Source: an uncultured virus (IMG/VR IMGVR_UViG_649633079_000003)
Lineage: Duplodnaviria; Heunggongvirae; Uroviricota; Caudoviricetes
Virus record (IMG/VR): IMGVR_UViG_649633079_000003
Length of the DNA: 64,000 bases
Reading direction: 5' to 3' (one strand)
Shown: in pieces, positions 3,554 through 50,234 of the stretch
How the letters are laid out: every line of letters begins with the position of its first letter
Position numbering within the stretch: position 1 is the stretch's first letter
Translations under genes and position numbers: made by a program
The notes under the pieces: generated by a model
The model's database searches: none
Told to the model about the DNA's origin: nothing
The model's input: the letters and a program-made list of their open reading frames with translations, nothing else

Positions 3554-6133
3554 ATGAATATAAACGGGAATCAAGAAGAAAATCCATTAGAGAATATTAC
3601 AAAAGAAGTCGGTAATAAAGCCGCTAAAGCAGGGAAGCAGGGAGCGAAAGCACTTGCAAAAAAAGCGGGGAAAATGGCAGGGAAGGCGCTGCTATCGGCT
3701 GCAAAAAAAGGGATGGCGGTCGCGATGAAAGCTATTGCTTCTGCACTTGCTCCCCTCATACCCTATATATTGTTAGGAATTGTTATTCTTTTCGTCATTG
3801 TGGCTGGTTATTATGTTCTATTTGAAACCAGAGGAGCGGAGAGCCATTATTCATTAAATCAAGAAGATGAAAATATAACGAAAATGAATGATAAAGGATA
3901 CTTTTCAACTTCTAAAATGTCAGGTAAAAACAAGGCTATTCTTGAATTTTATAATTATTTCGGTACAAGAGCCTATCGGCAAATTGTAGGTAACGATAAT
4001 ACAAAGCTTGAAAAGCCAGAAGATACAAAGATTAAAGATTTTTATAATCAAGAAAAACTATTCTCCATTAATCCTAACTTTCTATTTGTATTGGATGAGT
4101 ACGTTTTTAAAGGACAATTTAAATATCCTGAACAGTTTATTCAACCTGTTAATTATGATCCAAAAGAATTGAAGCTGGAGCAACTTGTGAATGACAAATA
4201 TGAAGTAACGGCAGAGTCAATGAAATATGATGAAAAAACAGGTTTAAAAACAAAAGAGAAGGAAAAATCAGTTCATGATTATGGAATTGGTTCTATATTT
4301 AAATACAAAAAGGATGAAATACTTAATACGGTAGAAGGGAATTACTATGCAGCAGAAGTAGTGCGAGGAGAGCATGTTGAAGTTGTGCCGATTAATGAAC
4401 CCTATCGTGAAGTGATGCACGATTACCCCAAGGAGATCCATTTGATTGATAAGGCGATTACGTTTGCTTTAGACGTGCAGCTCGCCTATGAAAAGGTTAA
4501 GACTCCCTTGGAAGGATTAAAAGATGGGAGAACCAAAGATCCGAAAACGAATTTGTCCAAAGTCTATTATAAGACACAGATTATTTACGATAAGGATGGT
4601 CAGCCTGTGGGTAAGGTTGACTTGTATAAGTATCGCAAAGGGTATGTGTATGAGACGAAGCCTGTGCCTACACCTGAAAACAACATTGAAAATAAGTATG
4701 GAACGAAATATATTAAAGATTATATGTTCTTTTTTAATGCCTGGGTTCCAAAATCCGTGATGACTGAATTTAATTTTGATGAGCGGGTAGGTTCAATTTT
4801 GGATACCGATTTAGACGTGGGCTCGCAATTGGACAGTGAAAACTTCAGAAGATCCATGCAATATTTTGATATTGTTTCCAAGTATGCTGAGGATTATGGG
4901 GTAGATCCATATATTATCATCGCAAAAATGGCTCAAGAATCCGGCGGGAATCCCAACCCGAGTAACGGGCAAGGACTAATGCAAATTAGTTATACAAGTA
5001 ATTATCGAGCCATTAGTGCAAAAAATGTCCGAACAGGGCAGAACGAAACATTTGCGGTGGCGAATCAATCGGATCGCGAAGATCCAGAGAAAGCGATCAG
5101 GTGGGCTGTCATGTATTTTGCAACCAAGCTTGATAAGTTTGACGGAGATTCACTAAAAGCACTCCAAGCTTACAATGTTGATGTCAGTGGGTATATTCAA
5201 AAACATTATCCTGAGGCTTGGCAAACCACGGATTGGATGAACTATCGAGAGGAAGCGCGCCTTTATTATGGACAAAAAGAGGGGTACGGGGAAACCAGAA
5301 GTGCGAGCTATGATTGTGCACCTAATTTGCAGAAGTCATCGGGAAAGGTATATGGAGACGTTTGCTATGTTGAACATGTACTTCGCTATTACGGTGGTGA
5401 GGCTATGAGTGGTCTTGAAGAGCATGACACTGATAAATCAAATGGCGTCGTAGACTTTTTCAATAAGCTATTCAATATTAAACAAAAAAAATATGACGAC
5501 AACGAAGTGAGAAGTAAATTTACTCACAATATGGGAAATCGAGAAATCGATATGACGATTAAATCGGTGACTACTTTTAGTCAAAAGGTTTTATTCTCGG
5601 AGGTCGGGAATACAGAGGAGTTGGAGTTTTGGGATGATGCCTTTTCGACTACAAATGGGAACTTATCTCGGGATCAATTCGCTAAAATGGTTCCAGGTGC
5701 AGATGGCTATATTTCTCCTGTTGCACTGGATACGATTCGAATTAGTTCAGGTTTCGGATCTCGGATTGACCCTGTGACACATAAAAAGGGTGCATTCCAT
5801 AAAGGTGTAGACGTGCCTCTACCTATTGGAACCCCTGTGTATGCTATATCCAATGGCACCGTTGAAGCGGCTGGGAAGGCAAGCGGCTATGGTCAGTGGG
5901 TTGTGATTCGGCTGGACGATGGAGCGAAAACCGTATACGGGCATATAAGCAAATGGGCGGTTAAAGCGGGAGACAAAGTAAGTCAGGGGCAGATCGTTGC
6001 TTATTCAGGAAATGAAGGGAAATCCACAGGTCCTCACTTGCACTTTGAGTATCATCTGAATGGTAAACCAACGGATCCTTACTCTATTGTTGTGAGAAAT
6101 GAAGAGAAGAATTCATTGCCTCCAGAACCATAA
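3554..6133 (+). CDS. Conjugative cell-wall hydrolase (VirB1-like): SLT lytic transglycosylase + M23 peptidase
   Basis: AKMAQESGG...GLMQI...ALQAYN (SLT); HKGVD, YGH, TGPHLHFE (M23); N-terminal TM; RBS ggagggtg before ATG 3554. Confidence 0.85.
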   Translation: MNINGNQEENPLENITKEVGNKAAKAGKQGAKALAKKAGKMAGKALLSAAKKGMAVAMKAIASALAPLIPYILLGIVILFVIVAGYYVLFETRGAESHYSLNQEDENITKMNDKGYFSTSKMSGKNKAILEFYNYFGTRAYRQIVGNDNTKLEKPEDTKIKDFYNQEKLFSINPNFLFVLDEYVFKGQFKYPEQFIQPVNYDPKELKLEQLVNDKYEVTAESMKYDEKTGLKTKEKEKSVHDYGIGSIFKYKKDEILNTVEGNYYAAEVVRGEHVEVVPINEPYREVMHDYPKEIHLIDKAITFALDVQLAYEKVKTPLEGLKDGRTKDPKTNLSKVYYKTQIIYDKDGQPVGKVDLYKYRKGYVYETKPVPTPENNIENKYGTKYIKDYMFFFNAWVPKSVMTEFNFDERVGSILDTDLDVGSQLDSENFRRSMQYFDIVSKYAEDYGVDPYIIIAKMAQESGGNPNPSNGQGLMQISYTSNYRAISAKNVRTGQNETFAVANQSDREDPEKAIRWAVMYFATKLDKFDGDSLKALQAYNVDVSGYIQKHYPEAWQTTDWMNYREEARLYYGQKEGYGETRSASYDCAPNLQKSSGKVYGDVCYVEHVLRYYGGEAMSGLEEHDTDKSNGVVDFFNKLFNIKQKKYDDNEVRSKFTHNMGNREIDMTIKSVTTFSQKVLFSEVGNTEELEFWDDAFSTTNGNLSRDQFAKMVPGADGYISPVALDTIRISSGFGSRIDPVTHKKGAFHKGVDVPLPIGTPVYAISNGTVEAAGKASGYGQWVVIRLDDGAKTVYGHISKWAVKAGDKVSQGQIVAYSGNEGKSTGPHLHFEYHLNGKPTDPYSIVVRNEEKNSLPPEP

Positions 6134-6864: not shown

Positions 6865-7590
6865 ATGTGTGGAAGTGTGGAAAACTTGACTCATGGAAAG
6901 ACGCTTGTATTAATCGCTTTAGATTCTGAAAACAGTGAGCATTTCACCTTGATGAAAGTGAATAAAAAAATTGAAATTGTGGATGTGTTGGAGGTGAGGC
7001 TATCTCAAAAAGAATCAGCTTTAGAAGTGGTTAAATGGATTGAACAGGAGGGTCAATATCGTTTGATAAGTGTTTGTGGTGAGCAATACATGACTTTTGT
7101 TAAATGTATGGAGCAATTTGCTCTGACGATCCCAAAAGATTTTTTTCGAGCTTTAAAAAGTAGGTTTTGGAATGTGCAAAGTGAAATCGTTTATCGTTTA
7201 AAATGTCCAGTGCACTTCAATTTGGAGCAACTGACATTTTTATATGGACTCACGTATAATACACATCCTGTAAAACATGTATCCGATGCTTTTCAGCTTA
7301 CGACATTGATGGCGGCTTATGCTTATGATACGGAGACGACCCGTAACATTAAGCAAAAGGGGGTTGAAGTTGTTCTTCGGGAAAGACTTTTAAAAGAAAC
7401 CATTGAACAATTAAGTGCAAAAGCCTTTTCTTTAGGGTATAGCCTGAATTTTCAACCCGTTATCCAGGAGGGGAAACAGGCCGTTGAATTGAAGGCGCAA
7501 AAAGAATCTGAGCACTTTTTAACGGTGGGTTCTGATTTGCATGAAGCCTTGGTTGAACTTGCTATGCATCTTATTTTGAAGAAAAGGTGA
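6865..7590 (+). CDS. Hypothetical protein (weak resemblance to a degenerate DnaQ-like fold)
   Basis: 241-aa ORF; catalytic motifs not convincing. Confidence 0.55.
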   Translation: MCGSVENLTHGKTLVLIALDSENSEHFTLMKVNKKIEIVDVLEVRLSQKESALEVVKWIEQEGQYRLISVCGEQYMTFVKCMEQFALTIPKDFFRALKSRFWNVQSEIVYRLKCPVHFNLEQLTFLYGLTYNTHPVKHVSDAFQLTTLMAAYAYDTETTRNIKQKGVEVVLRERLLKETIEQLSAKAFSLGYSLNFQPVIQEGKQAVELKAQKESEHFLTVGSDLHEALVELAMHLILKKR

Positions 7591-7806
7591 ATAGGGTTAT
7601 TAGTAATGACCGAAATGCTTATGATACATTATCCTAAAGATTCCTTACCAGAGGAATAGGAAAATACTTCATTTACATGAAGAAGGAGATGTGGACAGCG
7701 TGCGAAGAACGATTCAGTTAGAGATCTGCGAAGACAGAAATAAGCTAAGAAGTTTTGTTTTTTGCACCAGTAATGATTCAATGTATATGTCCCGTCGATA
7801 AAAACG

Positions 7807-7828
7807 GCCCAGGGGGTTTCCCCTGGGC
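7807..7828. terminator. Terminator hairpin between convergent genes
   Basis: gcccagggg/cccctgggc. Confidence 0.65.
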
Positions 7829-7860
7829 ATTATTTTTGTTGTTAAAATCATATGGTGTCT

Positions 7861-8310
7861 TTACAACTCATAAAGTATACCTTCCGAAAATGTCCATGTT
7901 GGTTTTTTAGCCGCATAAGCATTCTGAGATTTATAGATTTGGAGGGTTACTTTATCTATGCCGTTATTCAGGCTTTTCATAAAAGTAACATATGAATAAG
8001 CGAATTCAGCTACAGCCTCAGATGTTCCAGAAGCAATGATGTGTGAAGTGGCTTTATCGTTTGATTTTTCGACCAAAGCTGTTTCATACATGACCGCATC
8101 AATATTTGCACTTTCTGGAGAAGGTATGATCTGTTTATTGTGTTTAAGGTTATTAAAATCCTGATTCAATGAAGTAACTGTACTTTCTTTTTTATCTGTT
8201 TTAGATTTCTCCAAACTTTTATCTGTGTGCATTTGGGTAAGGAAAAATGCGATTACGATAATGACAACAAACGCAAGTATCCATTTCAAAATTCTTTTAT
8301 GAAATTCCAT
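7861..8310 (-). CDS. Membrane-anchored hypothetical protein
   Basis: N-terminal TM helix; RBS aaaggagtg. Confidence 0.7.
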   Translation of the reverse strand: MEFHKRILKWILAFVVIIVIAFFLTQMHTDKSLEKSKTDKKESTVTSLNQDFNNLKHNKQIIPSPESANIDAVMYETALVEKSNDKATSHIIASGTSEAVAEFAYSYVTFMKSLNNGIDKVTLQIYKSQNAYAAKKPTWTFSEGILYEL

Positions 8311-8477
8311 GCTAAAACACTCCTTTCAGTTCAGCTATCATATTTACGCGCTTTGTCAACAACAATGTTCCCTCCTTCTATATCCTATCTACATTTGAAT
8401 ATAAAAGGGAGGCAATACATGTTTGATTAGGTTTGAGCGTTGTAGATAAGATCAGACTTGTCACACTTCATAAACAT

Positions 8478-8506
8478 TTGACAATGAACATAACATTTCA
8501 TATAAT
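8478..8506 (+). promoter_or_regulatory. Consensus sigma-A promoter for the ncRNA/tRNA island
   Basis: TTGACA (8478-8483), 17 bp, TATAAT (8501-8506). Confidence 0.85.
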
Positions 8507-8519
8507 AACCATATAGCCA

Positions 8520-8560
8520 TTGACTATAAGCAAAATATATTATTGATTGACTATAAATTG
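8520..8560. promoter_or_regulatory. Paired operator-like sites (TTGACTATAGTCAA family)
   Basis: ttgactataagcaa at 8520 and ttgactataaattg at 8547. Confidence 0.6.
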
Positions 8561-8610
8561 ATTTTGGAATAAGATCAAACGCTCATATCTATAATGACGT
8601 TACCCTCAAA

Positions 8611-8759
8611 ACTTTCGAGGTGCAGCATAAGACTACATTACAGAAAATTCTCTTTTTGAATGAAATAATAATTAGGGGTCTGCCTCGACGGATGATTGAA
8701 AAATCATTGGATAAGCAGTCTCTAATCTAACGGTCTTATGAAATAATTTCTTTGGAAGT
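8611..8759 (+). ncRNA. Y-RNA-like structured ncRNA, copy A
   Basis: actttcgagg/ctttggaagt and cataagac/gtcttatg helices, invariant AAGACTACATTACA, inner GAAA-tetraloop hairpin. Confidence 0.7.
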
Positions 8760-8773
8760 GCATTAATTATCAC

Positions 8774-8905
8774 CCTGCGAGGTGCTTGTTAAGACTACAT
8801 TACAGATATCAAATAATATTATGAATTGATTTTAAGTTTTCTCGTTAAGAGACCAAAGTCGGTTTTACTCTTCTATTATTGTCTTAACGTTTCTTTCCTT
8901 GCAGG
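8774..8905 (+). ncRNA. Y-RNA-like structured ncRNA, copy B
   Basis: cctgcgagg/ccttgcagg and tgttaagac/gtcttaacg helices, invariant motif. Confidence 0.7.
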
Positions 8906-8985
8906 TGCATGATTTTATTCCTCTATGATAAGTCCTTGCAGTGAATTGAGAACTTGCCAACCCAAGACAGCAGGGATAAAAACTT

Positions 8986-9043
8986 TCTTTAGGGCGTCAA
9001 AAATTGGGTCAACGCTCGGCAGGTGCGAATCCTCCCTAAAGAC
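8986..9043 (+). ncRNA. tRNA-like element lacking an anticodon arm
   Basis: Acceptor tctttag/ctaaaga, D-like arm gcgt/acgc with TGG loop, T-like arm gcagg-tgcgaat-cctcc. Confidence 0.45.
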
Positions 9044-9198
9044 ATCTCACCGAAGTGTAAGACCTTGCATCAAAACGTCTGACAATGATCAGATGTAGCG
9101 TTGGTTAGGCATTCTCGAATCTTTGAATTTATTCGGGTAGGGGGTTATAGGGTGAGAGATTTAATATGGTTCCTAACCAACTTTGTTGGTTGTGGGAT

Positions 9199-9279
9199 GC
9201 AGAAGTGAGGGAATGTCCGATAGGGTAGACTCAAAATCTATGGGTCAAGATCGTGAGGATTTAGCTTCCTTCACCTGCA
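9199..9279 (+). pseudogene. Degenerate tRNA-Leu(CAA)
   Basis: Anticodon arm gtaga-ctCAAaa-tctat and T-stem gagga/tcctt; two acceptor mismatches; D arm and T-loop decayed. Confidence 0.55.
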
Positions 9280-9287
9280 CTCTATTT

Positions 9288-9370
9288 GCGGGGGTGGCGG
9301 AATCGGCAGACGCATCGGACTTAAAATCCGAGGTCATTGTGACGTGAGGGTTCGAGTCCCTCTCTCCGCA
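9288..9370 (+). tRNA. tRNA-Leu(TAA)
   Basis: Full cloverleaf, tcgga-ctTAAaa-tccga, variable arm, GGTTCGAGTCC; CCA not encoded. Confidence 0.95.
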
Positions 9371-9534
9371 TCATGAAATGATATTGTCGGAAAATGTAAT
9401 TAAAGATTAAAATTTTGATAAATAAATCACCTATTTATGACGTAGTTGTGAATAATGGTGATTTTAAGAGGGTAGAGTTTCAAAGCTCCCGTTTTTTTTA
9501 GCCATAAGCGATTCAAATAAAGGAGGTTTTTTAC

Positions 9535-10056
9535 ATGCAAATTAAGCTTTCTCAAGCGGTTACACTACAATCGATCATTAAAAAACGCCTCGGTGAACTT
9601 AAACAAGAGCGAGATCAATTGGCTTATTTATTCGTTGCAAAAGGAGATCAACCTGATACTCCTGAGGATCGAACATTTGATCAAGTCAACATTGAAATAG
9701 AAGCTACTCAAATGGATTTGCTTGAGGTTGAAAGTAAAATCGCAAAAGCAAACTCAACATTTTGTATCGAATGGGATGGTCGAAATATGACGATCGGTGA
9801 CGCGCTCCGTTTGGCTAAACTGTATCGTGATCGAGCTCGTGAGTATGGGGACTATGGTTCTCAGCGAGATAATGAGATTGATCGTTCAAGAATGTTAACA
9901 ACGCCCGTTTTAAAAGTTCTTACCTATAAACCCAAAGATTATGCGGAAAATGCTCAAAAGCTGACTCGTAAAGCTAACAAGATTTCGGACTTGATTGATG
10001 AGGCAAATTTGCAGAATATGATTTTGTATCCAAGATACTCTGTCTATATGGACTAA
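9535..10056 (+). CDS. DIP1984/DUF6847-like helical protein
   Basis: IKLSQAV...L.ELK, I.KAN, MTIGDAL, LIDEAN pattern recognised by eye; RBS aaggaggt. Confidence 0.65.
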   Translation: MQIKLSQAVTLQSIIKKRLGELKQERDQLAYLFVAKGDQPDTPEDRTFDQVNIEIEATQMDLLEVESKIAKANSTFCIEWDGRNMTIGDALRLAKLYRDRAREYGDYGSQRDNEIDRSRMLTTPVLKVLTYKPKDYAENAQKLTRKANKISDLIDEANLQNMILYPRYSVYMD

Positions 10057-10074
10057 ACACTGCAATTCATAAAG

Positions 10075-10143
10075 CTGGTTCTCACCAGTAGAGACGACAT
10101 CATTACATTCATTTTTGATGTTTTGTCTACTGGTGAGAACCAG
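10075..10143. repeat. Perfect 18-bp inverted repeat hairpin
   Basis: ctggttctcaccagtaga (10075-10092) / tctactggtgagaaccag (10126-10143); inner gacatca/tgatgtt. Confidence 0.9.
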
Positions 10144-10146
10144 TAA

Positions 10147-10356
10147 GGGTAAGTATTGAGAGCGACCCGTTCACTGGGGGTATCAGTGGCGATGACATTC
10201 GTACTTGTCACATCTTTTTAAGATGTTTTTGACTTAAAAAAGTATTAGGTCGAACGCTGAACGGATGACGATTAACGAGGTTACGGCATGACGTATAACG
10301 AACGCTATCTAAATTTGGTGGATAAAATCCAAACGAAAGAAAGCTCCGTCTTACCC
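10147..10356 (+). ncRNA. Structured RNA candidate with a periodic ACG tract, downstream of the DIP1984-like gene
   Basis: Closing helices gggtaag/cttaccc and gagc/gctc, three internal hairpins, eight ACG at 10254-10304. Confidence 0.6.
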
Positions 10357-10819
10357 CGATTTTTTGTGAAGAGTAAAGTTAAGCAATATAGCGGATGTTG
10401 GAGGCGGCTACCCAGGATAACCAACAACACAAGATGGGTTGACTCTAACCTTTCAAAAGTAGAGCTACAGGCTGGGGATTGCTTAATAATTATTGTTTTA
10501 GTGAAGCGTTGGCTTAAAGACCGAAGATAGTTTGCGATTTGCTTATTCTCAACTTCGATGGAATTCACTTGAGAATCTTTATTTTTACAGTGCAATTTGT
10601 TGGGAGTGATGTAGTTGCCTAATTGGAATTGGATTTACATCGTTTGGTTGGGACTGCTCTGTTTAGTTGAAATAGTTTTTATTGTATTTTCGTAAGTGTA
10701 ACGGAAGCTATCAATAGTATCTACTTAATTAATGCCTTCGTTTGGATAATTGTAATCGCGATATGCATCATTCTTCACTACTATACAGGAGTGAAGTCGT
10801 GGACTAATGTTGTTAATTT

Positions 10820-10904
10820 GGAGGGTTGACCGAGTGGACGAAGGTAGCGGTTTTGAAAGCCGTAGGGGTGAAAGCTTCCGTGGGTTCGAATCCCACACCC
10901 TCCT
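10820..10904 (+). tRNA. tRNA-Ser(TGA)
   Basis: ggagggt/accctcc acceptor, gcggt-ttTGAaa-gccgt, long variable arm, GGTTCGAATCC. Confidence 0.93.
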
Positions 10905-10928
10905 TCCATTAAATAAGGATGTGGAATT

Positions 10929-11135
10929 GTGAACTTTTTTAAGTGGTTTTTGTATGACATTTCGCTTGGGAGAGCAGTAACCGTGCTGGCTTTTTCTTAC
11001 CTTACAACGACGATCATCGGAAACGAACGAACGGGTGTTTTTACTTGGTTTATTACGCTTTTATTTTGTTTGAGCATGAATTATTTAAGTTATATCGTAC
11101 AAGGGAGTGAGAGTCATTACGATTCTAACTCCTAA
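10929..11135 (+). CDS. Small membrane protein
   Basis: Two hydrophobic segments, 68 aa. Confidence 0.55.
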   Translation: MNFFKWFLYDISLGRAVTVLAFSYLTTTIIGNERTGVFTWFITLLFCLSMNYLSYIVQGSESHYDSNS

Positions 11136-11242
11136 TTCAATTAAATAGACTCTTCGGAATGAGGGTAGGAGTGTATTGGCACACTCTGTTTAACAAGAGG
11201 GAGGGAGAGGTTCTTGTTAAATAAAATAGTTGAGGAGGTTTT

Positions 11243-11458
11243 ATGATGAATGTGTGTACCCGGTGTAATACAAAATTGAGTGGGAGTCGTTGTGGAAAAT
11301 GTAATACTTCTTCCCATGTAAAATCGACATCCAGTGTATCGAGTAGTGATCTTTTGACGTACAGTACAATCTCCAGCATTTCAAGCACAATCAGTAGCAG
11401 TCCAGACTGTTCAAGTAGTTCCAGTTTTGACAGCGGAAGTTGTAGTATTGATTTTTAA
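11243..11458 (+). CDS. Small Cys/Ser-rich protein
   Basis: CxxC...CxxC followed by a Ser-rich tail; RBS gaggagg. Confidence 0.65.
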   Translation: MMNVCTRCNTKLSGSRCGKCNTSSHVKSTSSVSSSDLLTYSTISSISSTISSSPDCSSSSSFDSGSCSIDF

Positions 11459-11536
11459 TTTTCTTCTTTGTTGAAAACATGGGTACATGTTTACCCATGT
11501 TTTTAATGAGGGTTCTGAGGATGAGGTGGATTCTAT

Positions 11537-11824
11537 TTGAAAAAACAATGTCTGGTGTTGCTTAGCCTTTTTGTTTTAATTTTGTTAGCTGGGTGTTCAG
11601 AAGATTACACGATTGATAATGCGAAAGTTGTTTCAAAATCACATGCTGCCGATCGAGATACGTACTTAATCACACTCGATAAAAACGGCAGTCGCTATAG
11701 CTATACGGTTGTTCGCAGTGAATTTGATCTGGTTAATGAGGGGGCACTGGTGGATGTAAAAGTTAAACATGGATTTTTTGACTTTCCTGTAGAAATCATT
11801 CCATCAGAAAGACATCCCAAATGA
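11537..11824 (+). CDS. Lipoprotein
   Basis: Lipobox LAGC. Confidence 0.75.
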   Translation: MKKQCLVLLSLFVLILLAGCSEDYTIDNAKVVSKSHAADRDTYLITLDKNGSRYSYTVVRSEFDLVNEGALVDVKVKHGFFDFPVEIIPSERHPK

Positions 11825-11863
11825 TGAAAGGTACAGAAACGATAGAGATAGGGGTGAGTTATC

Positions 11864-12187
11864 ATGTTTTATCATGTGTATACGGATCGATCAGAATTGT
11901 CTGTAGATGAAGCTGTGGCAGTAGCCGAGACCAACCATGGTTACCGTTATGGGGACATGAAGAAGGTACATGTTCTTGTTTCAGGGTTGGTCAAGTATCC
12001 TGGTTTGATTAAAGACGTTTTAGACTTACTCTTACATGGCGAGAAGGAGAACAAGCTTGTTGTACTGCAAAATGACGTGGATCAGCAGTCGATCAAGCAT
12101 TCACTCGAAGGTAAAGTGCCTGCTATGTACAGAACAATTGTTAAATATCTGAATCAAGTGGTAAAAAAGAAAACTGTGGCGGTGTAA
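11864..12187 (+). CDS. Hypothetical protein
   Basis: ORF with RBS ggggtga. Confidence 0.65.
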   Translation: MFYHVYTDRSELSVDEAVAVAETNHGYRYGDMKKVHVLVSGLVKYPGLIKDVLDLLLHGEKENKLVVLQNDVDQQSIKHSLEGKVPAMYRTIVKYLNQVVKKKTVAV

Positions 12188-12303
12188 GTTCCACTTTGGC
12201 ACGATGCCTGAATATTTCATTTTGGTTGTGCTAACCGAGAGGCAAAAATGTGAGTCTCTTCAGTAAAGTTAGATAAGCATCGTTTAAGAAGCGATGCAAT
12301 TAT

Positions 12304-12410
12304 GCTGATATAGCTCAATGGGTAGAGCAAGTGATTTGTGTGCTGTACGTACAATGTGTCGGCTGGTTCACAAATGTTAGGTTGGGAGGGTTCGAGTCCC
12401 TTCGTCAGCG
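12304..12410 (+). tRNA. tRNA-Thr(TGT)-like RNA with an expanded anticodon arm (107 nt)
   Basis: Acceptor gctgat/gtcagc, D arm tagctcaatgggtagagca and T arm gaggg-ttcgagt-ccctt intact; about 30 extra nt after tttgt. Confidence 0.65.
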
Positions 12411-12536
12411 TCGTATTAGGTAAACGTTTTTCTACCAGGGCAAGATGAACCAAAAAAGGATTGGAATAGAATTTATCGCTCACCGATGGTAGGAAGAATA
12501 GCATAAATAATGAAATGCGAGGGAGACTTAGCAATC

Positions 12537-12776
12537 ATGAAAGAGCTGGAATTGATGCTTTTGAACATGTGGTCGGAATGTGGGATTGAGGAAATCTATA
12601 AATATAAGAATAGAATCAAAGCGTTTAAAGAACCTTTACTGAATATCGAATTGTTTTATGATTTGACTTATCGATTATTCTCAGATGTTGAAGATATCGC
12701 AAATCATGAAGATTCGTGTCCTAAGAATTACAAGCTGAGTGTCAACGCCTTAATTCAAAGCAGAAGCCGAGCATAG
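12537..12776 (+). CDS. Hypothetical protein
   Basis: ORF with RBS gaggga. Confidence 0.55.
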   Translation: MKELELMLLNMWSECGIEEIYKYKNRIKAFKEPLLNIELFYDLTYRLFSDVEDIANHEDSCPKNYKLSVNALIQSRSRA

Positions 12777-13024
12777 TTAACTTCAAGTGTTTACATATGT
12801 TTTACATGATGCTTCTCTTAACAGTGGGAAAGCATCGTAGGTTTTGAACATATGTTGGTTTGCAGAGTGTAAGCAGGGAATTGTAATGCATGTGTGGCAA
12901 TCCTTGACCTAAACACAAGCATTAAAAAGCGAGCCAGAGGTTCATGTTCTCTGAGTTAAGCTTGACCAATGATTGACCTCATCAATATTGGTTCACGAAG
13001 TAGCTAATTCGTGAGCTGATATTC

Positions 13025-13095
13025 GCGGGGGTAGTTTAACGGTAGAACTTCTGCCTTCCAAGCAGAGAGTGAGGGTTCGATTCCCTTCGTCCGCT
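13025..13095 (+). tRNA. tRNA-Gly(TCC)
   Basis: tctgc-ctTCCaa-gcaga and GGTTCGATTCC; one G-G acceptor mismatch. Confidence 0.9.
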
Positions 13096-39993: not shown

Positions 39994-40668
39994 TTATTTC
40001 AAAACCTTTACTACAAGATCATTTGTATTGACACTGAGTTTTTTCTTTAACTCATCACTGATTTTAAACGAAATGCGTTCTCCTGGTTTTAAATCTTTAT
40101 AAGAGTAGGTTAGGATCGTTTTTCCATCTTCATCTTTGGTTTGTGGCGAAGCAGAGGTAGATACTGCATCCTCCAGATCAGTAGGGATTTTTCCTTTTAC
40201 ACTTTCACTTTCAGGCAATACTGAAAATTTGACACGTTCTTCAGTGAAGACAATATCAAATGCGGTTTCTCTGATTTCAAGAACGCCGCTTTGTGGAAAT
40301 TGAATATTATTTATGGTAACCGCATAATGATATTCCTTATTAATCAACTCTTGAACTTTATCTGAAGGTAATATTAAGATCATGTCTTTTGCATACTGCT
40401 TATAGTAATCGACTTCTTGACTCATAGCCTCCATTTTTCGATTTTGTTCATCTACATAGGCTTGTACCTTTTGCGCATCTGTAATTTTTAGTTCTCCCTT
40501 GGCAGGTTGTTTCTCGGAATCAAGTTTCTGAGACTGTTCCTGTTGTTTTGGAGGAGTTACCTCCTGTGTTTGTTTCTCAGTGTCCGATGGAGAACACCCC
40601 GTAAGGAACAGTACACCCGCCAACAAGGTGAAAGATGTTATTTTAAAGATGATATTCAAGCCTTTCAC
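39994..40668 (-). CDS. Lipoprotein
   Basis: Lipobox LTGC. Confidence 0.75.
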   Translation of the reverse strand: MKGLNIIFKITSFTLLAGVLFLTGCSPSDTEKQTQEVTPPKQQEQSQKLDSEKQPAKGELKITDAQKVQAYVDEQNRKMEAMSQEVDYYKQYAKDMILILPSDKVQELINKEYHYAVTINNIQFPQSGVLEIRETAFDIVFTEERVKFSVLPESESVKGKIPTDLEDAVSTSASPQTKDEDGKTILTYSYKDLKPGERISFKISDELKKKLSVNTNDLVVKVLK

Positions 40669-40714
40669 TCCTTTCGAATCTTGATTCTATATCATATGCA
40701 TCACAAAAGATAAA

Positions 40715-40755
40715 TTGACTATAAATTATGTTCTATATATAATGACTATAGACAA
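40715..40755 (+). promoter_or_regulatory. Sigma-A promoter with paired operator sites
   Basis: TTGACT, 17 bp, TATAAT; sites at 40715 and 40742. Confidence 0.7.
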
Positions 40756-40816
40756 AATTATAATTAAATCATATCTTTATAGAGCAACTTAACAATTGGG
40801 AAAAGGAGGGGGTTCC

Positions 40817-41023
40817 GTGGAATATAACTGCAAAACTGAAATAAGGCTCCCAGAGGGAACGAAGATTCGAAGTCGAGAAGACGGAAAAATCTATACGATC
40901 CATGATTCAATTTGGACAAATAATCAATTTGGATATGGTGTATATCTGTACCGAGTAAAGGAACGTTTAGATACAGCCTTTGGTTTGTACTGTAAATGGT
41001 TCGATGTTGTATCTTTACCATAA
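40817..41023 (+). CDS. Hypothetical protein
   Basis: RBS aggagg + GTG. Confidence 0.55.
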   Translation: MEYNCKTEIRLPEGTKIRSREDGKIYTIHDSIWTNNQFGYGVYLYRVKERLDTAFGLYCKWFDVVSLP

Positions 41024-41048
41024 AAAAAAGAAGGTGTGTGTTTATACA

Positions 41049-41975
41049 ATGCTTAAAAGAATTTGGTTAGGTGTTTTTTTAATATCGATTTTCCTATCAC
41101 TTGTGGCTTGCGCTAAAGAACCGTTTACGAAAGAAGAAGAAAAAACGTTTATGAATGAGTACATGGATATGGCAACAAAACCTTCGGAACCTCAAGTTTT
41201 GGAAGCGAAAATGAAGCCTAATTTGGATCGTTTAAGTAAAGAAGGTTCGTCCAACGCCATTGATGGATTGCTGTATGCCATGTATCAAAAACTGCCAACG
41301 TTAACGAGTAAAGCAGAGGGTTTACACGATGTCATGGCTGCTGCTAAAGCGAAAAAGATAGATTTGAATCAAACCGAAGATGCCAAGAAAATAGAGGATC
41401 AGACGTTAAAGGCTTTTGTCGGTGAAGTATTAAAGGATCATTTTTATTTTGTTGAAGAAAATGGACGAATCACGGTGCAGCCTAATATGTCCTATATGCT
41501 TAAAAACTATGAAGCGTATATGACAGATTCGCTAAAAGCCACAATTCAGTTTAGTGAAGATGAATTTGAACATCCTTTTTATGATGCAGATACACAAAAA
41601 TTCAATTTAGATATCGTTGCAAAACGTATTCTCCTGTTGGAAGACAACCTGAAGAAGTATGCGAACACGTATTACGCTGAGACTTTCAAGAAAAGTAAGG
41701 AATACTACTATCAAATCTATTTTGGAATGAACAATGAATTTTTAGTAGACAGCAAGAAGTTTGTATTGAAAGAGGTAATAGACCACTATCAGCGAACGTC
41801 AAAGGAGTACCCGCAGTCTCAATTATCTAAAGATATCCTTGCTTATCTTGGAAAATTGAAGATATCTCACAATCAAGTTACGGACGACATACAGGTGTTC
41901 CTGACTGGAATCGCAAATGTACAGACAGTTGATGTTGTTAACGATGGATCTACCCTTAAAAAGAATACAAAATAA
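41049..41975 (+). CDS. Lipoprotein
   Basis: Lipobox LVAC. Confidence 0.75.
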   Translation: MLKRIWLGVFLISIFLSLVACAKEPFTKEEEKTFMNEYMDMATKPSEPQVLEAKMKPNLDRLSKEGSSNAIDGLLYAMYQKLPTLTSKAEGLHDVMAAAKAKKIDLNQTEDAKKIEDQTLKAFVGEVLKDHFYFVEENGRITVQPNMSYMLKNYEAYMTDSLKATIQFSEDEFEHPFYDADTQKFNLDIVAKRILLLEDNLKKYANTYYAETFKKSKEYYYQIYFGMNNEFLVDSKKFVLKEVIDHYQRTSKEYPQSQLSKDILAYLGKLKISHNQVTDDIQVFLTGIANVQTVDVVNDGSTLKKNTK

Positions 41976-42203
41976 GTTGAAGAAGGTGAGTAGATCTGGT
42001 GTAATTCAACATGAAATAAGAATTGAAGCGGGGTTTCCCGCTTTTTTTGTTTGGAACTTATCATGTAAATTATATTTTACTTAATTTGTTGATTCGTTAA
42101 TGTATATAGTATATAGTTTTATTATATTGTTTATTGTCAAAAGAACATGATAAGTGATTTCTTATATATGAGTAAAAAATAAGAACGGAAGGAGTGATTT
42201 AGG

Positions 42204-44744
42204 TTGGGATTTGCAAGTTGGTTTAACAAAGAATCTTCGTTTTCGAGTAATATGAATAACCAGCCAGATTGGTTAGAATCGCTTGCAGTGAATGAAGAGG
42301 TGAACTGTAAGGTTGTTGTTTTGTATCGGAAATTTCATAGTGAGGAGACTGGATTCTCTGTTTATGTTTGTGAAGACGAAAATGGCGATGTCTTTACACT
42401 TTCGGGTACGTTTGCGATTGAACTCATGGATGAACAAACATATTTTATTAAAGGGACAGTTGCTATCTATAGAAAAGAAAAGCAGGTTACAATCAAGTCT
42501 GCGCGTTTAGAAAGACCTACGTCTCGAAAAGGTATTATATCTTTTTTGAAAACGCTCAAAGGGCTCAATACGAGATCAGAACAGTTATACGATTTGTATG
42601 GCGAAGAAATTGTTGAAATCTTAATCAATGATCCAATGCGAATTGCTAAGGAAGTTAGTGGGATTGGAAAGAAAAGTGTCGAGAGCTGGAGTGCTCAGCT
42701 TCAGTTGTTGGAAGAGGATTATCATGTATTGAGTGAGCTTCTTGCTTGGGGAATATCGATGCGCCAAGCCAAGAAGTTGCTTGAACGTTTTCATGGTCAA
42801 ATCATTGCCTTGATTGAACGTAATCCCTATATGCTTATGAATGAAGTAAAAGGTTTTGGGTTTTTAAGATGTGATGAAATTGCTCGCCAAGTTGGATATG
42901 ATCCCAAAGGGGAAGAACGAATTCAGCAAGGACTTTTGTATGTCTTGAAAGAAGCTATGAATGAGGGTCATTGTTTTTTGCCAAGAGAAATGCTGCTGAA
43001 AAGAGCGAAGGATTGTTTGGACTTTAAACTTACGGTTATTGAAATGAAACAACTTGTCGATCGTAATCGAGGCGTTGTTGAGGTTCCTTATTCTTTTGGT
43101 GAAAAGACCTACCTGATCCCTTATTCAACTTTATACAATCATTGGAACCACTATCAAAGAGAATCCTCTGCCAGAGGACGAGAGAAATATCGGTACCGTG
43201 TCATTTCTTTAGATATTGTAGAGATTGAACAACAACTATTAACATTGCAATCAAATATGAAAATCGTTATGGAGAAAGACTCTGTATACCTTATTTACTT
43301 ACATCAGGCGGAATTAAAAGTAGCCGATAAAATTATCCGATTGATGCTTGAAAACCAGAATACATTTGAAGGTGTTCAAGATGACGTCGAACGGTACTTA
43401 GAAACCAATGAACTTACCTTGGAAGACATGCAGAAAAAAGCAGTTGAAGAATTTGTGAGCAAAACGGGCGGTATGTACATTTTAAACGGGAGCGCGGGTT
43501 GCGGAAAAACGTTTACCCTAAAAGTCATCCTGGCACTCATGGAGCAACAGTACAAAAAGAGGAAGAAGCCTTTTCGTGTTAAAATTTTCGCACCTACGGG
43601 AAAAGCCTCCAAAGTGGCTAAGAAAGCGACAGGAAGAGAATGTACAACCGTTCATAGAGGTTTAGCGTATGTTCGAGGTGTTGGTTTTCAATATAATGAA
43701 GACAACCCCTTGGAAGCCGATTGTGTTGTTATTGATGAGAGTTCTATGCTTGATATTTTGCTTACGAGTAGTTTGTTTGAGGCGATCCCTGCGGGTTGTA
43801 AAGTGATATTTATGGGAGATACGAAGCAACTTCCTTCTGTGGGTGCGGGCAATGTGCTATACGATTTGATTGAGTGTGGAATGATCCCTGTCATTACGTT
43901 GAATGTAGTGAAGCGTCAGGCTGATCATTCGGGTATTATACGTAACGCCAATAAGATTATCAATGCAGAAATGATCTCTTCTTGTCAAGATACCGAGGAT
44001 GCGTACGTTATTTGGAAGCACAAGGTTGATGATGTACATGATACACTTATCCGATCTATAGAGCGTTTAATGAGTGGGGCTAAATACTCATTTGAAGATA
44101 TTCAAATTCTTTGCCCTCAGCGCATAGGTGAGATCGGAACTTATGTGGTAAATTGGATGATACAGCAAGCATTTAATGCAGACCCCATAGGGGAAAAAGT
44201 ATTAAACCGCTACATCAAAAAGAAGCTTTCTTCCAGCAAGGATCCTGTGGACATTCCACTTTACTTTCAAGCTGGGGATAAGGTGATTCACATTGCAAAT
44301 AATTACTCAATGCCTTGGTATCAAAAAGATCCATCGGGTAACTTGGTAGAGGATTCAAGTCTTATGGGTATAACCAATGGAGAATGCGGAGTCATTGAAG
44401 AAATTCGAAAAGAAAAAGTAATGAATGTGAATCAAACAATGATGATTGTCCGCTATGAAGATGGCTATGTGCAGTACACGGATAACTTTGAAGAATTGGA
44501 TCATGCATATGCATTAACGGTTCATAAAAGCCAAGGCTCGCAATGGCCTGCCGTTATAATGCCCGTGATGATGGAGAACTACAATATGCTTGATAACAGT
44601 ATCTTCTATACAGGGTATACTCGCTCTGTAGACTTTAACTGCGTCATTGGTCAACCGGAAGCTATTGCTCATGCTATTCGAACATTTAAAAATAGAAGAC
44701 GGTTTACCAGTCTGAAAGAAAGGTTTCTCGCGGAGGCAAGCTAA
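42204..44744 (+). CDS. recD2: RecD2-family ATP-dependent DNA helicase
   Basis: HhH motifs (GIGKK, GFGF), GSAGCGKT, DESSM, GDTKQLPSVG, YALTVHKSQGS. Confidence 0.92.
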   Translation: MGFASWFNKESSFSSNMNNQPDWLESLAVNEEVNCKVVVLYRKFHSEETGFSVYVCEDENGDVFTLSGTFAIELMDEQTYFIKGTVAIYRKEKQVTIKSARLERPTSRKGIISFLKTLKGLNTRSEQLYDLYGEEIVEILINDPMRIAKEVSGIGKKSVESWSAQLQLLEEDYHVLSELLAWGISMRQAKKLLERFHGQIIALIERNPYMLMNEVKGFGFLRCDEIARQVGYDPKGEERIQQGLLYVLKEAMNEGHCFLPREMLLKRAKDCLDFKLTVIEMKQLVDRNRGVVEVPYSFGEKTYLIPYSTLYNHWNHYQRESSARGREKYRYRVISLDIVEIEQQLLTLQSNMKIVMEKDSVYLIYLHQAELKVADKIIRLMLENQNTFEGVQDDVERYLETNELTLEDMQKKAVEEFVSKTGGMYILNGSAGCGKTFTLKVILALMEQQYKKRKKPFRVKIFAPTGKASKVAKKATGRECTTVHRGLAYVRGVGFQYNEDNPLEADCVVIDESSMLDILLTSSLFEAIPAGCKVIFMGDTKQLPSVGAGNVLYDLIECGMIPVITLNVVKRQADHSGIIRNANKIINAEMISSCQDTEDAYVIWKHKVDDVHDTLIRSIERLMSGAKYSFEDIQILCPQRIGEIGTYVVNWMIQQAFNADPIGEKVLNRYIKKKLSSSKDPVDIPLYFQAGDKVIHIANNYSMPWYQKDPSGNLVEDSSLMGITNGECGVIEEIRKEKVMNVNQTMMIVRYEDGYVQYTDNFEELDHAYALTVHKSQGSQWPAVIMPVMMENYNMLDNSIFYTGYTRSVDFNCVIGQPEAIAHAIRTFKNRRRFTSLKERFLAEAS

Positions 44745-44821
44745 AAAGAATACTCCATTTCCTCTTTATGAATCCAAGCGCCTACGGTCTAATATTGTTT
44801 GTTGAAGGGAAATGATACTGC

Positions 44822-45202
44822 ATGACACTTAAATTCAAGGCAATTTTTATTTTGACATTATTCTCAATGTTGTTATTAGGATGTTATGTTTATATCTCAT
44901 CTATGTATACGGCTATTGATAAAATAGGATACAAGTTGCTCGATAGAAGTCAACTTGAAAATGTAGTTACCAAGAGCCGCATAGCCCTTGCTCAACAGGA
45001 ACTACATCACCTTGGATATACTGGAGCAGTCATTGAGGCAACGACTACTCCGGTTCATTTTAAAGAACCGATGCAGGTTCATTTTCAGATTATGCCGAAT
45101 AATATGCTTGAAAGAATATGTTTTAAAATTCTTGGTTTGGGCAACCCGCGTTGGTATGGATTTGGGTTGAAATATATCCACAACACTGACAAATTGGAGT
45201 GA
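44822..45202 (+). CDS. Membrane-anchored hypothetical protein
   Basis: N-terminal TM. Confidence 0.55.
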   Translation: MTLKFKAIFILTLFSMLLLGCYVYISSMYTAIDKIGYKLLDRSQLENVVTKSRIALAQQELHHLGYTGAVIEATTTPVHFKEPMQVHFQIMPNNMLERICFKILGLGNPRWYGFGLKYIHNTDKLE

Positions 45203-45641
45203 TCTGATTTATCAATTTCTTATTCTCTAAAAATTTAAGGTTAAGCAGACTTGTTCTGACACTAAAACCATTCGGGGGACAAGTGACTTATTGATTGTAA
45301 TCTATTGAGCGAATTCATGATGAATTCGCTTTTTTGTATTGGTTCAAAAGAACTGTGATGATCCAGTCAATTTAGAACTAAAGCAGGATGGTATTTTAAA
45401 AAAATATTGAAAAAGTCTGCTATTTGTCATTTTTTGTCTCCCCCACATTATTCCAATATGCTATATTGATTCAAGAATGACGATTCGATTCCTTTGTTTA
45501 TTATCTTTCATAACAATTTGCATATGATATTTTGTTTATATAAAAAAGGTTTCATTTAGGTTGAATGTTGAATTAGCTACAGGTCTTAGAAACAGATGGG
45601 TTAAACCCAACAAACAGGTTAAAAACAGGGAGAGGAATTGA

Positions 45642-49781: not shown

Positions 49782-49829
49782 TTCAGAACCATACAAAGAA
49801 AGAGCCGATAAATTTCGGCTCTTTTTCTT

Positions 49830-50234
49830 ATTTATAATTGTAAGAATTTTATTGATAATCGATGTTCAAAGGAAATCTATAACGAATGCTCCTGCCTGAT
49901 GGGGCATTGTCAATGGGTTGAGGTTAAAGAGGATATTGTCGAGGAGAATGACACCCTGTTTGTATATACCGAGAAAGAGGGAAAAATGGTTAAAATTGTT
50001 GCCAATCTGTTCGGTCAACACGAGATTGGAACTGACCGGAAACGAACAGAAGAGGCATTCCTTCGGAAAGCTCTTGAGGCGATGAAGGAAAAGGCTAAGA
50101 AGAAAGGATATTCTTGTGCACTGCCCTATGAACTTGGAAGCAGACTGGGCGGTGGTGATTGGAGTGAAATACTCCGCATCATTAAAGAAGTATTTCATGA
50201 TTATCCTGTAACGATTTATCGTTTACCGATGTAA
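49830..50234 (+). pseudogene. 5'-truncated macro-domain gene
   Basis: ANLFGQ...ALPYELGSRLGGGDW; the open frame runs back into the upstream terminator with no N-terminal motifs. Confidence 0.65.

Follow-up and report, generated by a model that had tools for sequence, protein, structure and literature searches.

The 64 000-nucleotide (nt) stretch of an uncultured virus analysed here (IMG/VR record IMGVR_UViG_649633079_000003; the whole stretch is hereafter called the window) encodes a protein of 173 amino acids that resembles DIP1984 and DUF6847, and the region immediately 3′ of this gene specifies a folded RNA of approximately 210 nt (10147–10356). This domain belongs to a conserved family of pseudoknotted non-coding RNAs that accompany DUF6847/DIP1984-like genes, and the family is undescribed as far as searches of Rfam 15 and of the literature show. 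Between its helices the RNA presents eight short motifs at near-constant steps, and by analogy with known systems we lean towards the view that RNA and protein form an RNA–protein particle, in which several protein copies would bind the array. The elements of the locus are as follows.

9535–10056, plus strand: gene (an open reading frame, ORF) for the 173-residue DIP1984/DUF6847-like protein, which has four helices and short strands and is presumed to partner the RNA
10075–10143, plus strand: long hairpin of approximately 27 pairs without a U-run after it, lying between the stop codon and the RNA domain
10147–10153, plus strand: 5′ arm of helix P1 (GGGTAAG), which pairs with CTTACCC at 10350–10356 and closes the domain
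10160–10163, plus strand: 5′ arm of helix P1b (GAGC), which pairs with GCTC at 10343–10346
10165–10168, plus strand: ACCC, the 5′ strand of a pseudoknot with the P2 loop, where it pairs with GGGT
10172–10188, plus strand: hairpin P2 (CACTG-GGGGTAT-CAGTG; arms 10172–10176 and 10184–10188), the loop of which carries the 3′ strand of the pseudoknot
10211–10225, plus strand: hairpin P3 (CATCTT/AAGATG; arms 10211–10216 and 10220–10225), in a variable region
10254–10304, plus strand: eight phased AC units, each of them ACG, which represent the window's version of the U-N-A-C heptad array found across the family
10319–10331, plus strand: hairpin P4 (TGGAT/ATCCA; arms 10319–10323 and 10327–10331), in a variable region
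10343–10356, plus strand: 3′ side of the closing helices, namely GCTC (P1b), a conserved CGT and CTTACCC (P1), then CGAUUUUUU

The existence of an RNA structure is argued from covariation and not from folding energy, which is a weak argument in this case (z = −1.9 for a 221-nt domain); a longer stretch reaches z = −5.6, mostly due to the hairpin at 10075–10143. Thirteen domains were aligned, with helices defined from pairing tables, and standard pairs occupy 92.7 % of the cells across these sequences, compared with 72.3 % when partners are shuffled (none of 500 shuffles reaches the observed value) and 37–46 % when partners are slid by one to three columns. Both sides of the pair change in 19 of 24 cases, including all seven pairs of P2, where 100 % of cells are paired, and 11 of the 14 pairs of P1/P1b. 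The closing helices and hairpins listed in a first-pass annotation, which had been made from the sequence alone, are all present as it described them, and the structured RNA that it placed behind the gene is real, by covariation.

P1 and P1b together make up one long helix with single-base bulges and an invariant CGT in its 3′ strand. Nearly all homologous flanks have a closing helix of 7–14 base pairs (bp) in the corresponding position, with a sequence that is unrelated between loci; P1b, for its part, reads GGGC/GCCC, AGAC/GTCT, GGAC/GTCC, GAAC/GTTC or TAGC/GCTA in other loci. P2 comprises 5–7 bp across the family and has the loop consensus G-R-G-S-G-U-A-U. In alignment A6 the pseudoknot appears as CGC:GCG in other loci, its middle pair being CG in five sequences and GC in eight, and pseudoknots identified by eye in the sister subfamily read ACCT:AGGT, AACC:GGTT and CCCA:TGGG. 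P3 and P4 are kept with compensatory changes in the closest relative only, on a plasmid of P. thiaminolyticus (L109), where they read CATCCT/AGGATG and GGAT/ATCC, respectively; in other lineages P3 is absent or different. A hairpin between stop codon and domain occurs in nearly all family members, and its form differs by lineage: that of L109 matches the 10075–10143 hairpin with compensatory changes, and others have a GUGAGACU-loop hairpin or a hairpin with a UGA/UCA internal loop at that place.

Comparison with described RNAs gave no relative of this domain. A search of window positions 7000–13000 against Rfam 15 at E ≤ 1 returned only tRNAs and weak chance matches elsewhere, and the same database at gathering thresholds found only tRNAs in 20 related loci. 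No relevant paper, judged by titles, emerged from full-text literature searches with the names and identifiers of the protein family.

Within the domain, the ACG units of the window start at 10254, 10261, 10268, 10275, 10283, 10291, 10298 and 10302, giving spacings of 7, 7, 7, 8, 8, 7 and 4 nt. Eight ACG in 52 nt is the maximum for the window, which has a G+C content of 38.4 % and an ACG density of approximately 11 per kb. The best ACG cluster on either strand of 200 dinucleotide-preserving shuffles held four units in 103 cases, five in 89 and six in 8, and never seven or eight, whilst the pattern ACGN4ACGN4ACG occurs twice (overlapping) against an expectation of 0.06. The first-pass annotation had given the eight positions and their spacings correctly, and had rightly called such phasing unexpected, with none of the 200 shuffles reaching even seven ACG in 52 nt. 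Its choice of ACG as the repeat unit did not survive the comparison of relatives, in which the unit conserved across the family proved to be U-N-A-C and ACG to be specific to certain lineages.

This comparison used 54 non-redundant 3′ flanks, with five duplicates or near-duplicates left out (L108, L111 and L002–L004). Distances from AC to AC peak sharply at 7 nt (188 pairs, against 62.2 ± 8.0 in shuffles; z 15.7), with further signals at lags of 8 nt (z 5.1), 14 nt (z 7.7) and 21 nt (z 5.4); the coding regions in front, taken as a control, contain 50 AC–AC pairs at lag 7. Chains of at least five AC at 7–8-nt steps occur in 29 of the 54 flanks, and for 26 of these none of 200 shuffles has a match. 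The 25 flanks that have no such chain comprise 15 weak-scoring loci that putatively encode DIP1984 proper, the RNA of which is related and less regular, five loci of a subgroup for which no RNA is detected, and five others, mostly with irregular spacing. A logo of 188 units has U at position −2 in 79 % of cases, followed by any base and then by A and C, the latter two being the search criterion itself.

The base that follows AC is G in 36 %, C in 32 %, A in 21 % and U in 11 % of the 188 units, and is uniform within lineages: the window, the Paenibacillus and Bacillus plasmids, Heyndrickxia and the Agate phages have G, a second group has a mixture of A and G, and a third has C or U. Eight is the commonest number of units (12 of 34 loci, using a permissive chain), and the spacing 7-7-7-8-7-7-4 is identical in six distant loci drawn from both the A/G and the C groups. 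Judged by these sequence comparisons, the ACG array of the window is a local form of a U-N-A-C heptad array with fixed architecture and a period of 7–8 nt. The first-pass annotation had itself proposed the 3′ flanks of homologues as a test, and both the phased array and covarying closing helices are present there.

It is, on this evidence, extremely improbable that the region holds no RNA feature and owes its appearance to chance, to a DNA-level repeat such as protein-binding iterons, or to a coding sequence. An ATG at 10288 does open a frame of 80 codons (10288–10530), yet this ORF is rejected as a gene, not being kept in L109, where a tRNA directly follows the domain. RNA helices are kept by covariation, the array keeps to one strand and to a set position with respect to the gene, its 7–8-nt step does not match the helical repeat of DNA, and its density is the one never reached in the shuffles above. 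A second candidate array, at the next densest ACG cluster of the window (six in 50 nt at 11007), was likewise set aside as coding, as it lies inside a conserved hydrophobic ORF.

The association of this RNA with the gene extends well beyond the window. Homologues were sought by tblastn on plasmids, then with one Heyndrickxia protein in genome contigs, and then in genomes of its class, the Bacilli, of which 95 of 401 sampled carry the gene at E ≤ 1 × 10−5; in many of these it is single-copy and chromosomal. The 3′ flanks of the 30 top-scoring and of 20 further loci were examined. Four Agatevirus phages, with approximately 31 % protein identity, have the gene, then approximately 450 nt without a convincing gene, and then tRNA-Met; the 450-nt stretch holds AACGG-N-ACGATTAACGA-N-ACG, nearly letter-identical to the window, in a domain closed by GTAGAAGAGGAA/TTCCTCTTCTAC instead of GGGTAAG/CTTACCC. 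The Heyndrickxia chromosome and two plasmids, those of P. thiaminolyticus (56 % identity) and of B. badius, likewise have array and domain, so that the order of gene followed by RNA is common to megaplasmids, phages and chromosomes at 30–56 % protein identity. The RNA lies 20–150 nt 3′ of the stop codon, always on the strand of the gene, and the weak-scoring loci taken as DIP1984 proper (E about 1 × 10−11) have the same 5′ module and pseudoknot RNA behind their gene. Other neighbours vary between loci, the sole exception being a B3_4-domain gene considered below.

Searches aimed at further viral members recovered the Agate phages alone. Scanning IMG/VR for AACGG-N(2-6)-ACGATTAACGA gave 99 stretches, of which those in three Agatevirus genomes are real and the remainder are chance; a single-protein search of viral contigs found no related loci; and a search with a six-sequence alignment found only the Agate phages amongst viral contigs and nothing in genome and metagenome contigs. 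A covariance model of the domain, R1, has a single match in the 64-kb window (10148–10357, 100 bits) and recovers members outside its seed from all three array types, with E-values from 9 × 10−8 to about 0.1. Applied to 151 Bacilli genomes, it gave one match in each of six genomes (E ≤ 0.001), and all six lie 38–100 nt behind a DUF6847-like gene on the same strand. This result speaks for specificity, not frequency, because stricter filters and a bias towards ACG/ACA cause many true members to be missed.

Sequences from the locus also occur in RNA sequencing (RNA-seq) data, where 17 runs from five studies contain at least half of the sampled words of window 9400–10700. One contig of run X1 covers both gene and RNA. 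Word depth in run X3 is 1481 for a contig spanning 9000–10355 and 1104 for one spanning 10326–10866, compared with 53 for a 4-kb contig that starts in the downstream tRNA-Ser, a contrast that contaminating DNA would not be expected to give. The X3 contigs break or branch at 10355, within the last bases of P1, where one runs on into unrelated sequence, and end or branch again inside tRNA-Ser at 10866; these breaks, a single observation, may be RNA ends or an assembly artefact. Two raw-read runs with the same species label (X21 and X24, 2026) have no reads on the stretch and are hence uninformative.

Given a position that is always 3′ of the gene and on its strand, 20–150 nt past the stop, the domain might instead be a cis-acting element in the 3′ untranslated region of the mRNA, that is, a protein-bound stability or autoregulatory site and not a free RNA. 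The X1 contig that joins gene and RNA would agree with this, as would the intrinsic terminator that follows the RNA in many chromosomal loci. We nevertheless regard such an element as unlikely. A pseudoknotted fold of 160–210 nt with eight motifs at fixed spacing is elaborate for a role in stability, and the conserved hairpin between coding region and domain suggests processing. Moreover, on the B. badius plasmid pPM400 (L110 3501–4020) the RNA is intact, with the highest R1 score of all members, behind a gene whose frame is broken: tblastn aligns residues 1–100 only, and the C-terminal part lies in another frame.

With regard to the protein itself, the first-pass description of it as helical and DIP1984-like is upheld at the level of fold and superfamily, with the curated cut-offs not reached. 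It scores 19.4 bits against NCBIfam DIP1984_fam (NF038048), where the cut-off is 70, and 15.2 bits against Pfam DUF6847 (PF20935), where it is 27, each alignment spanning nearly the whole model; phrog_25222 is matched over the full length at E 3.1 × 10−17. The AlphaFold (AF2) model, with a predicted local distance difference test (pLDDT) score of 96.3, has four long helices and short strands, and its sole significant Foldseek match is 3kdq_C (E 2 × 10−5; template modelling score 0.74 by query and 0.83 by target; next match E > 0.3). A profile search of 1.84 billion representatives yielded 213 relatives at E ≤ 0.001. Amongst 80 aligned relatives, 44 match DUF6847 at E ≤ 0.001, and a profile of the 80 finds 3kdq in PDB sequences at E 1.1 × 10−10. 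The protein is thus DIP1984-like by fold and superfamily and forms a sister branch (phrog_25222) outside the curated family. An identical protein, annotated as hypothetical, is encoded on plasmid pSC2 of Paenibacillus polymyxa SC2 (NC_014628.2).

RNA and protein are probably parts of one particle, because the folded RNA lies directly behind the gene here and in many other loci. As we envisage it, 10147–10356 would yield a stable pseudoknotted RNA of approximately 210 nt, transcribed with or just behind 9535–10056. The P1/P1b closing helix, together with the 5′ hairpin whose loop pairs with the upstream ACCC, would present a central tract in which eight U-N-A-C units follow one another at 7–8-nt steps, and on which several copies of the neighbouring protein might assemble with one unit per binding site. 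The outcome we infer would be a particle of fixed stoichiometry, formed much as HutP or TRAP reads phased triplets, and such a TRAP/HutP-like reading is plausible by analogy. The base after AC, G in this copy, would be read by the protein; its uniformity within lineages is what a co-evolving reader would produce. Four near-invariant polar residues of the protein family (N73, 100 %; S151, 97 %; R98, 95 %; N158, 93 %) would suit one base-specific site per subunit, and an arrangement as two sets of four would be in keeping with the change of step that follows the fourth unit. Whilst the fold, the array and their linkage to the gene are demonstrated by the comparisons above, what is said here of binding, stoichiometry and role is drawn by inference from them.

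Several observations weigh against this particle, or at least against a simple form of it. Five related genomes (L156–L160) have an intrinsic terminator directly behind the stop codon of the gene; R1, which is weak on distant forms, detects no RNA there, and nothing RNA-like lies upstream, so that the protein can exist without a detectable adjacent RNA. (An 18-bit R1 match in all five is false, falling over the start of a dehydrogenase-like ORF.) The reverse case is that of pPM400, with its intact RNA and broken gene. The RNAs of the sister DIP1984 subfamily are more weakly phased, with chains of five units or fewer. The protein family is mildly acidic (median isoelectric point 5.5, median net charge −3), and it is helical, in contrast to the beta-rich TRAP. 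As to the transcripts, the RNA-seq contigs give neither ends nor strand, and their presence alone would be compatible with DNA carry-over. Finally, thermodynamic folding of the window copy gives the motif cores an unpaired probability of 0.37, against 0.36 for the rest of the domain, and the ‘unpaired tract’ of the first-pass annotation is not borne out for this copy taken alone. It does hold for the family mean, at 0.54 for motif cores against 0.38 elsewhere in the domain (n = 17, Wilcoxon p = 2 × 10−4), and RNAalifold, run on a wider model-based alignment, predicts no conserved pairing inside the array.

The first-pass annotation had also entertained an RNA antitoxin, for which we find no support. 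A type III-like system, in which the repeated RNA neutralises a toxic protein, would resemble this locus only broadly, in having a small protein gene beside a repetitive RNA on mobile elements, and is very unlikely here: the motifs are of 7 nt within one fold and not tandem units of ~36 nt, the RNA comes after the gene and not before it, and comparison of the protein with Pfam, NCBIfam and PDB sequences and by Foldseek matched it to no nuclease (PADLOC was not searched). A single-copy chromosomal gene, as found amongst the 95 Bacilli genomes, and the subgroup in which it stands without an RNA speak against it as well.

The surroundings of the module point towards tRNA biology: phage and plasmid copies sit among tRNA genes, a gene for a B3_4 domain, of tRNA-editing type, belongs to the operon of one lineage, and some RNAs contain a look-alike of the tRNA T-arm. 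On the P. thiaminolyticus plasmid, tRNA-Ser starts a few bases past P1. In 8 of 15 ACC-type loci (L125, L128, L129, L131, L134, L136, L139 and L140) the B3_4 gene lies on the same strand and ends no more than approximately 25 nt before the DUF6847-like gene begins; B3_4 is a domain of the phenylalanyl-tRNA synthetase beta subunit, and is a free-standing protein in these loci. In two loci a tyrosyl-tRNA synthetase gene lies upstream. The sister-subfamily RNAs of L147–L153 display GGTTCGAGTCC, the T-arm consensus of tRNA, in a short hairpin, and these RNAs end in a G-rich GAGGGCGGG...GGGGA segment. On sequence grounds, U-N-A-C may also be read as the letters of U33 followed by an NAC anticodon, with 7 nt being the length of an anticodon loop.

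These same features allow the possibility, which we hold to be real though not probable, that the RNA works with something other than the DUF6847-like protein, for instance a tRNA-related enzyme or the tRNAs, and is linked to the DUF6847-like gene by a shared transcription unit or by help with chaperoning or processing. The B3_4 gene directly upstream, the T-arm look-alike, the placement in tRNA clusters and the resemblance of the heptad to an anticodon loop would all accord with this, as would the acidic protein and the subgroup with a gene and no RNA. Against it stand the six of six R1 genome matches that adjoin the gene, and an order of gene and RNA kept from phages to chromosomes as all other neighbours vary; furthermore, the unit logo has no tRNA-like preference at the positions equivalent to anticodon-loop 32 and 37.

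The particle favoured above and a role in tRNA biology need not be separate. In a speculative and rather improbable elaboration, the RNA would be an eight-site scaffold (7-7-7 / 8 / 7-7-4) for a DUF6847 octamer or two tetramers, and the particle, which would be of a new class in bacteria and phages, would act on tRNAs, its heptads mimicking anticodon loops so as to decoy or titrate an anticodon-directed enzyme or nuclease. A mimic of this kind would account for the position in tRNA clusters, for the B3_4 editing-domain gene as a partner and for the T-arm look-alike of the sister RNAs.

In the window, too, the module sits in a tRNA cluster, the members of which are given below.

9287–9372, plus strand: tRNA-Leu(UAA), upstream of the gene
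10820–10904, plus strand: tRNA-Ser(UGA), downstream of the RNA domain
13025–13095: tRNA-Gly

A further sequence at 12304–12410 (plus strand) scores 38.9 bits with the Rfam tRNA model and has a 29-nt insert in the anticodon loop; ARAGORN makes no call there, and this could be an interrupted or degenerate tRNA gene. Upstream of the cluster, a perfect sigma-70 consensus (TTGACA, 17 nt, TATAAT) is found at 8478–8506 (plus strand), followed at 8510–9286 by approximately 780 nt up to tRNA-Leu with no convincing ORF and no Rfam match. The former may serve the tRNA/gene/RNA unit as its promoter, and the latter may be the place of another non-coding RNA. No terminator-like site was found in 8300–11600. 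Just past tRNA-Ser, an ORF at 10929–11135 (plus strand) encodes a small hydrophobic protein of 68 residues, and a similar small hydrophobic ORF occupies the corresponding place on the P. thiaminolyticus plasmid (L109 about 4426–4620). By its PHROG matches the window as a whole has the appearance of a large phage-like or megaplasmid-like region; these include an endolysin/M23 peptidase domain, nicotinamide phosphoribosyltransferase, ribose-phosphate pyrophosphokinase, an exonuclease V-type helicase and a protease/tail protein. At the DNA level, blastn of 9000–11200 for phage similarity gave tRNA matches only, and megablast of 40000–50000 gave none.

A crystal structure of DUF6847/DIP1984 has been available since 2009 without a function, and the protein occurs in about a quarter of sampled Bacilli, in large phages and in megaplasmids. 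An adjacent, dedicated RNA offers a first testable function for it, as the protein part of an RNA–protein particle. The RNA in turn represents a new class with unusually rigid geometry, having eight motifs at fixed 7-nt steps plus a pseudoknot. Phage phiAGATE on Bacillus pumilus, and strains of Heyndrickxia, Brevibacillus and Paenibacillus, are systems in which this can be put to the test; were the particle to act on tRNAs, it would bear on the contest between phage and host over the tRNA pool.

Amongst known proteins, that of the window shares its fold with DIP1984/DUF6847 of Corynebacterium diphtheriae (PDB 3kdq), and differs from that family in scoring below both curated cut-offs and in belonging to a branch whose RNA has a regular eight-unit array. 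The closest parallel for the array comes from HutP and the hut terminator RNA of Bacillus subtilis. Each face of the HutP hexamer reads three XAG motifs, of which only A and G are recognised, and the model RNA has 4-nt spacers between motifs and hence a period of 7 (PMC2425495). Both RNAs have a short motif with a free base, phased at a period of 7, and the two sets of HutP motifs, one per face of the oligomer, invite comparison with the 7-7-7-8-7-7-4 of the present family, which can be read as two fours. HutP differs in being an alpha/beta hexamer that histidine and Mg2+ activate and that works as an antiterminator on a terminator in the 5′ leader of another operon; the window instead combines a helical DIP1984 fold with an RNA that forms a closed, pseudoknotted domain behind the gene of the protein itself, and in which no terminator/antiterminator alternative is seen.

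In the trp leader, 11 G/UAG repeats, with spacers of 2–3 nt and a period of 5–6, wrap around the 11-mer ring of TRAP, a beta-sandwich protein that acts by attenuation in a 5′ leader. The likeness to our locus would lie in the idea of one phased triplet per oligomer subunit, whereas none of the short spacers, the beta-sandwich ring or the 5′ leader attenuation is found here. As in HutP- and TRAP-type systems, phased short motifs are conserved in relatives (U-N-A-C at 7–8-nt steps); motifs in a 5′ leader over a terminator/antiterminator are not found. The analogy with TRAP drawn in the first-pass annotation agrees with the phased and conserved motifs; a helical, mildly acidic protein and an array placed in a 3′ domain, and not in a 5′ leader with a terminator/antiterminator, speak against membership.

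The RNAs CsrB and RsmZ display GGA motifs in hairpin loops of an irregular RNA, are encoded away from csrA, and vary widely in motif number. They resemble the present family in offering many copies of a short motif to one protein, if such binding occurs here, but spacing and number are fixed in our family and the RNA adjoins the gene. In the type III system ToxIN, tandem direct repeats of ~34–36 nt lie upstream of an endoribonuclease toxin gene; this locus likewise has a protein gene beside a repetitive RNA on mobile elements, but its unit is of 7–8 nt, its RNA is downstream, and its protein matches the DIP1984 fold only. Lastly, species 1 and 2 of phage T4 are stable small RNAs of phage tRNA clusters, and we know of no sequence or family link between them and the RNA of the window. 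The family described here differs from them in being mostly chromosomal, and resembles them in the tRNA-gene surroundings of its phage and plasmid copies, which may be excised from a tRNA-containing precursor.

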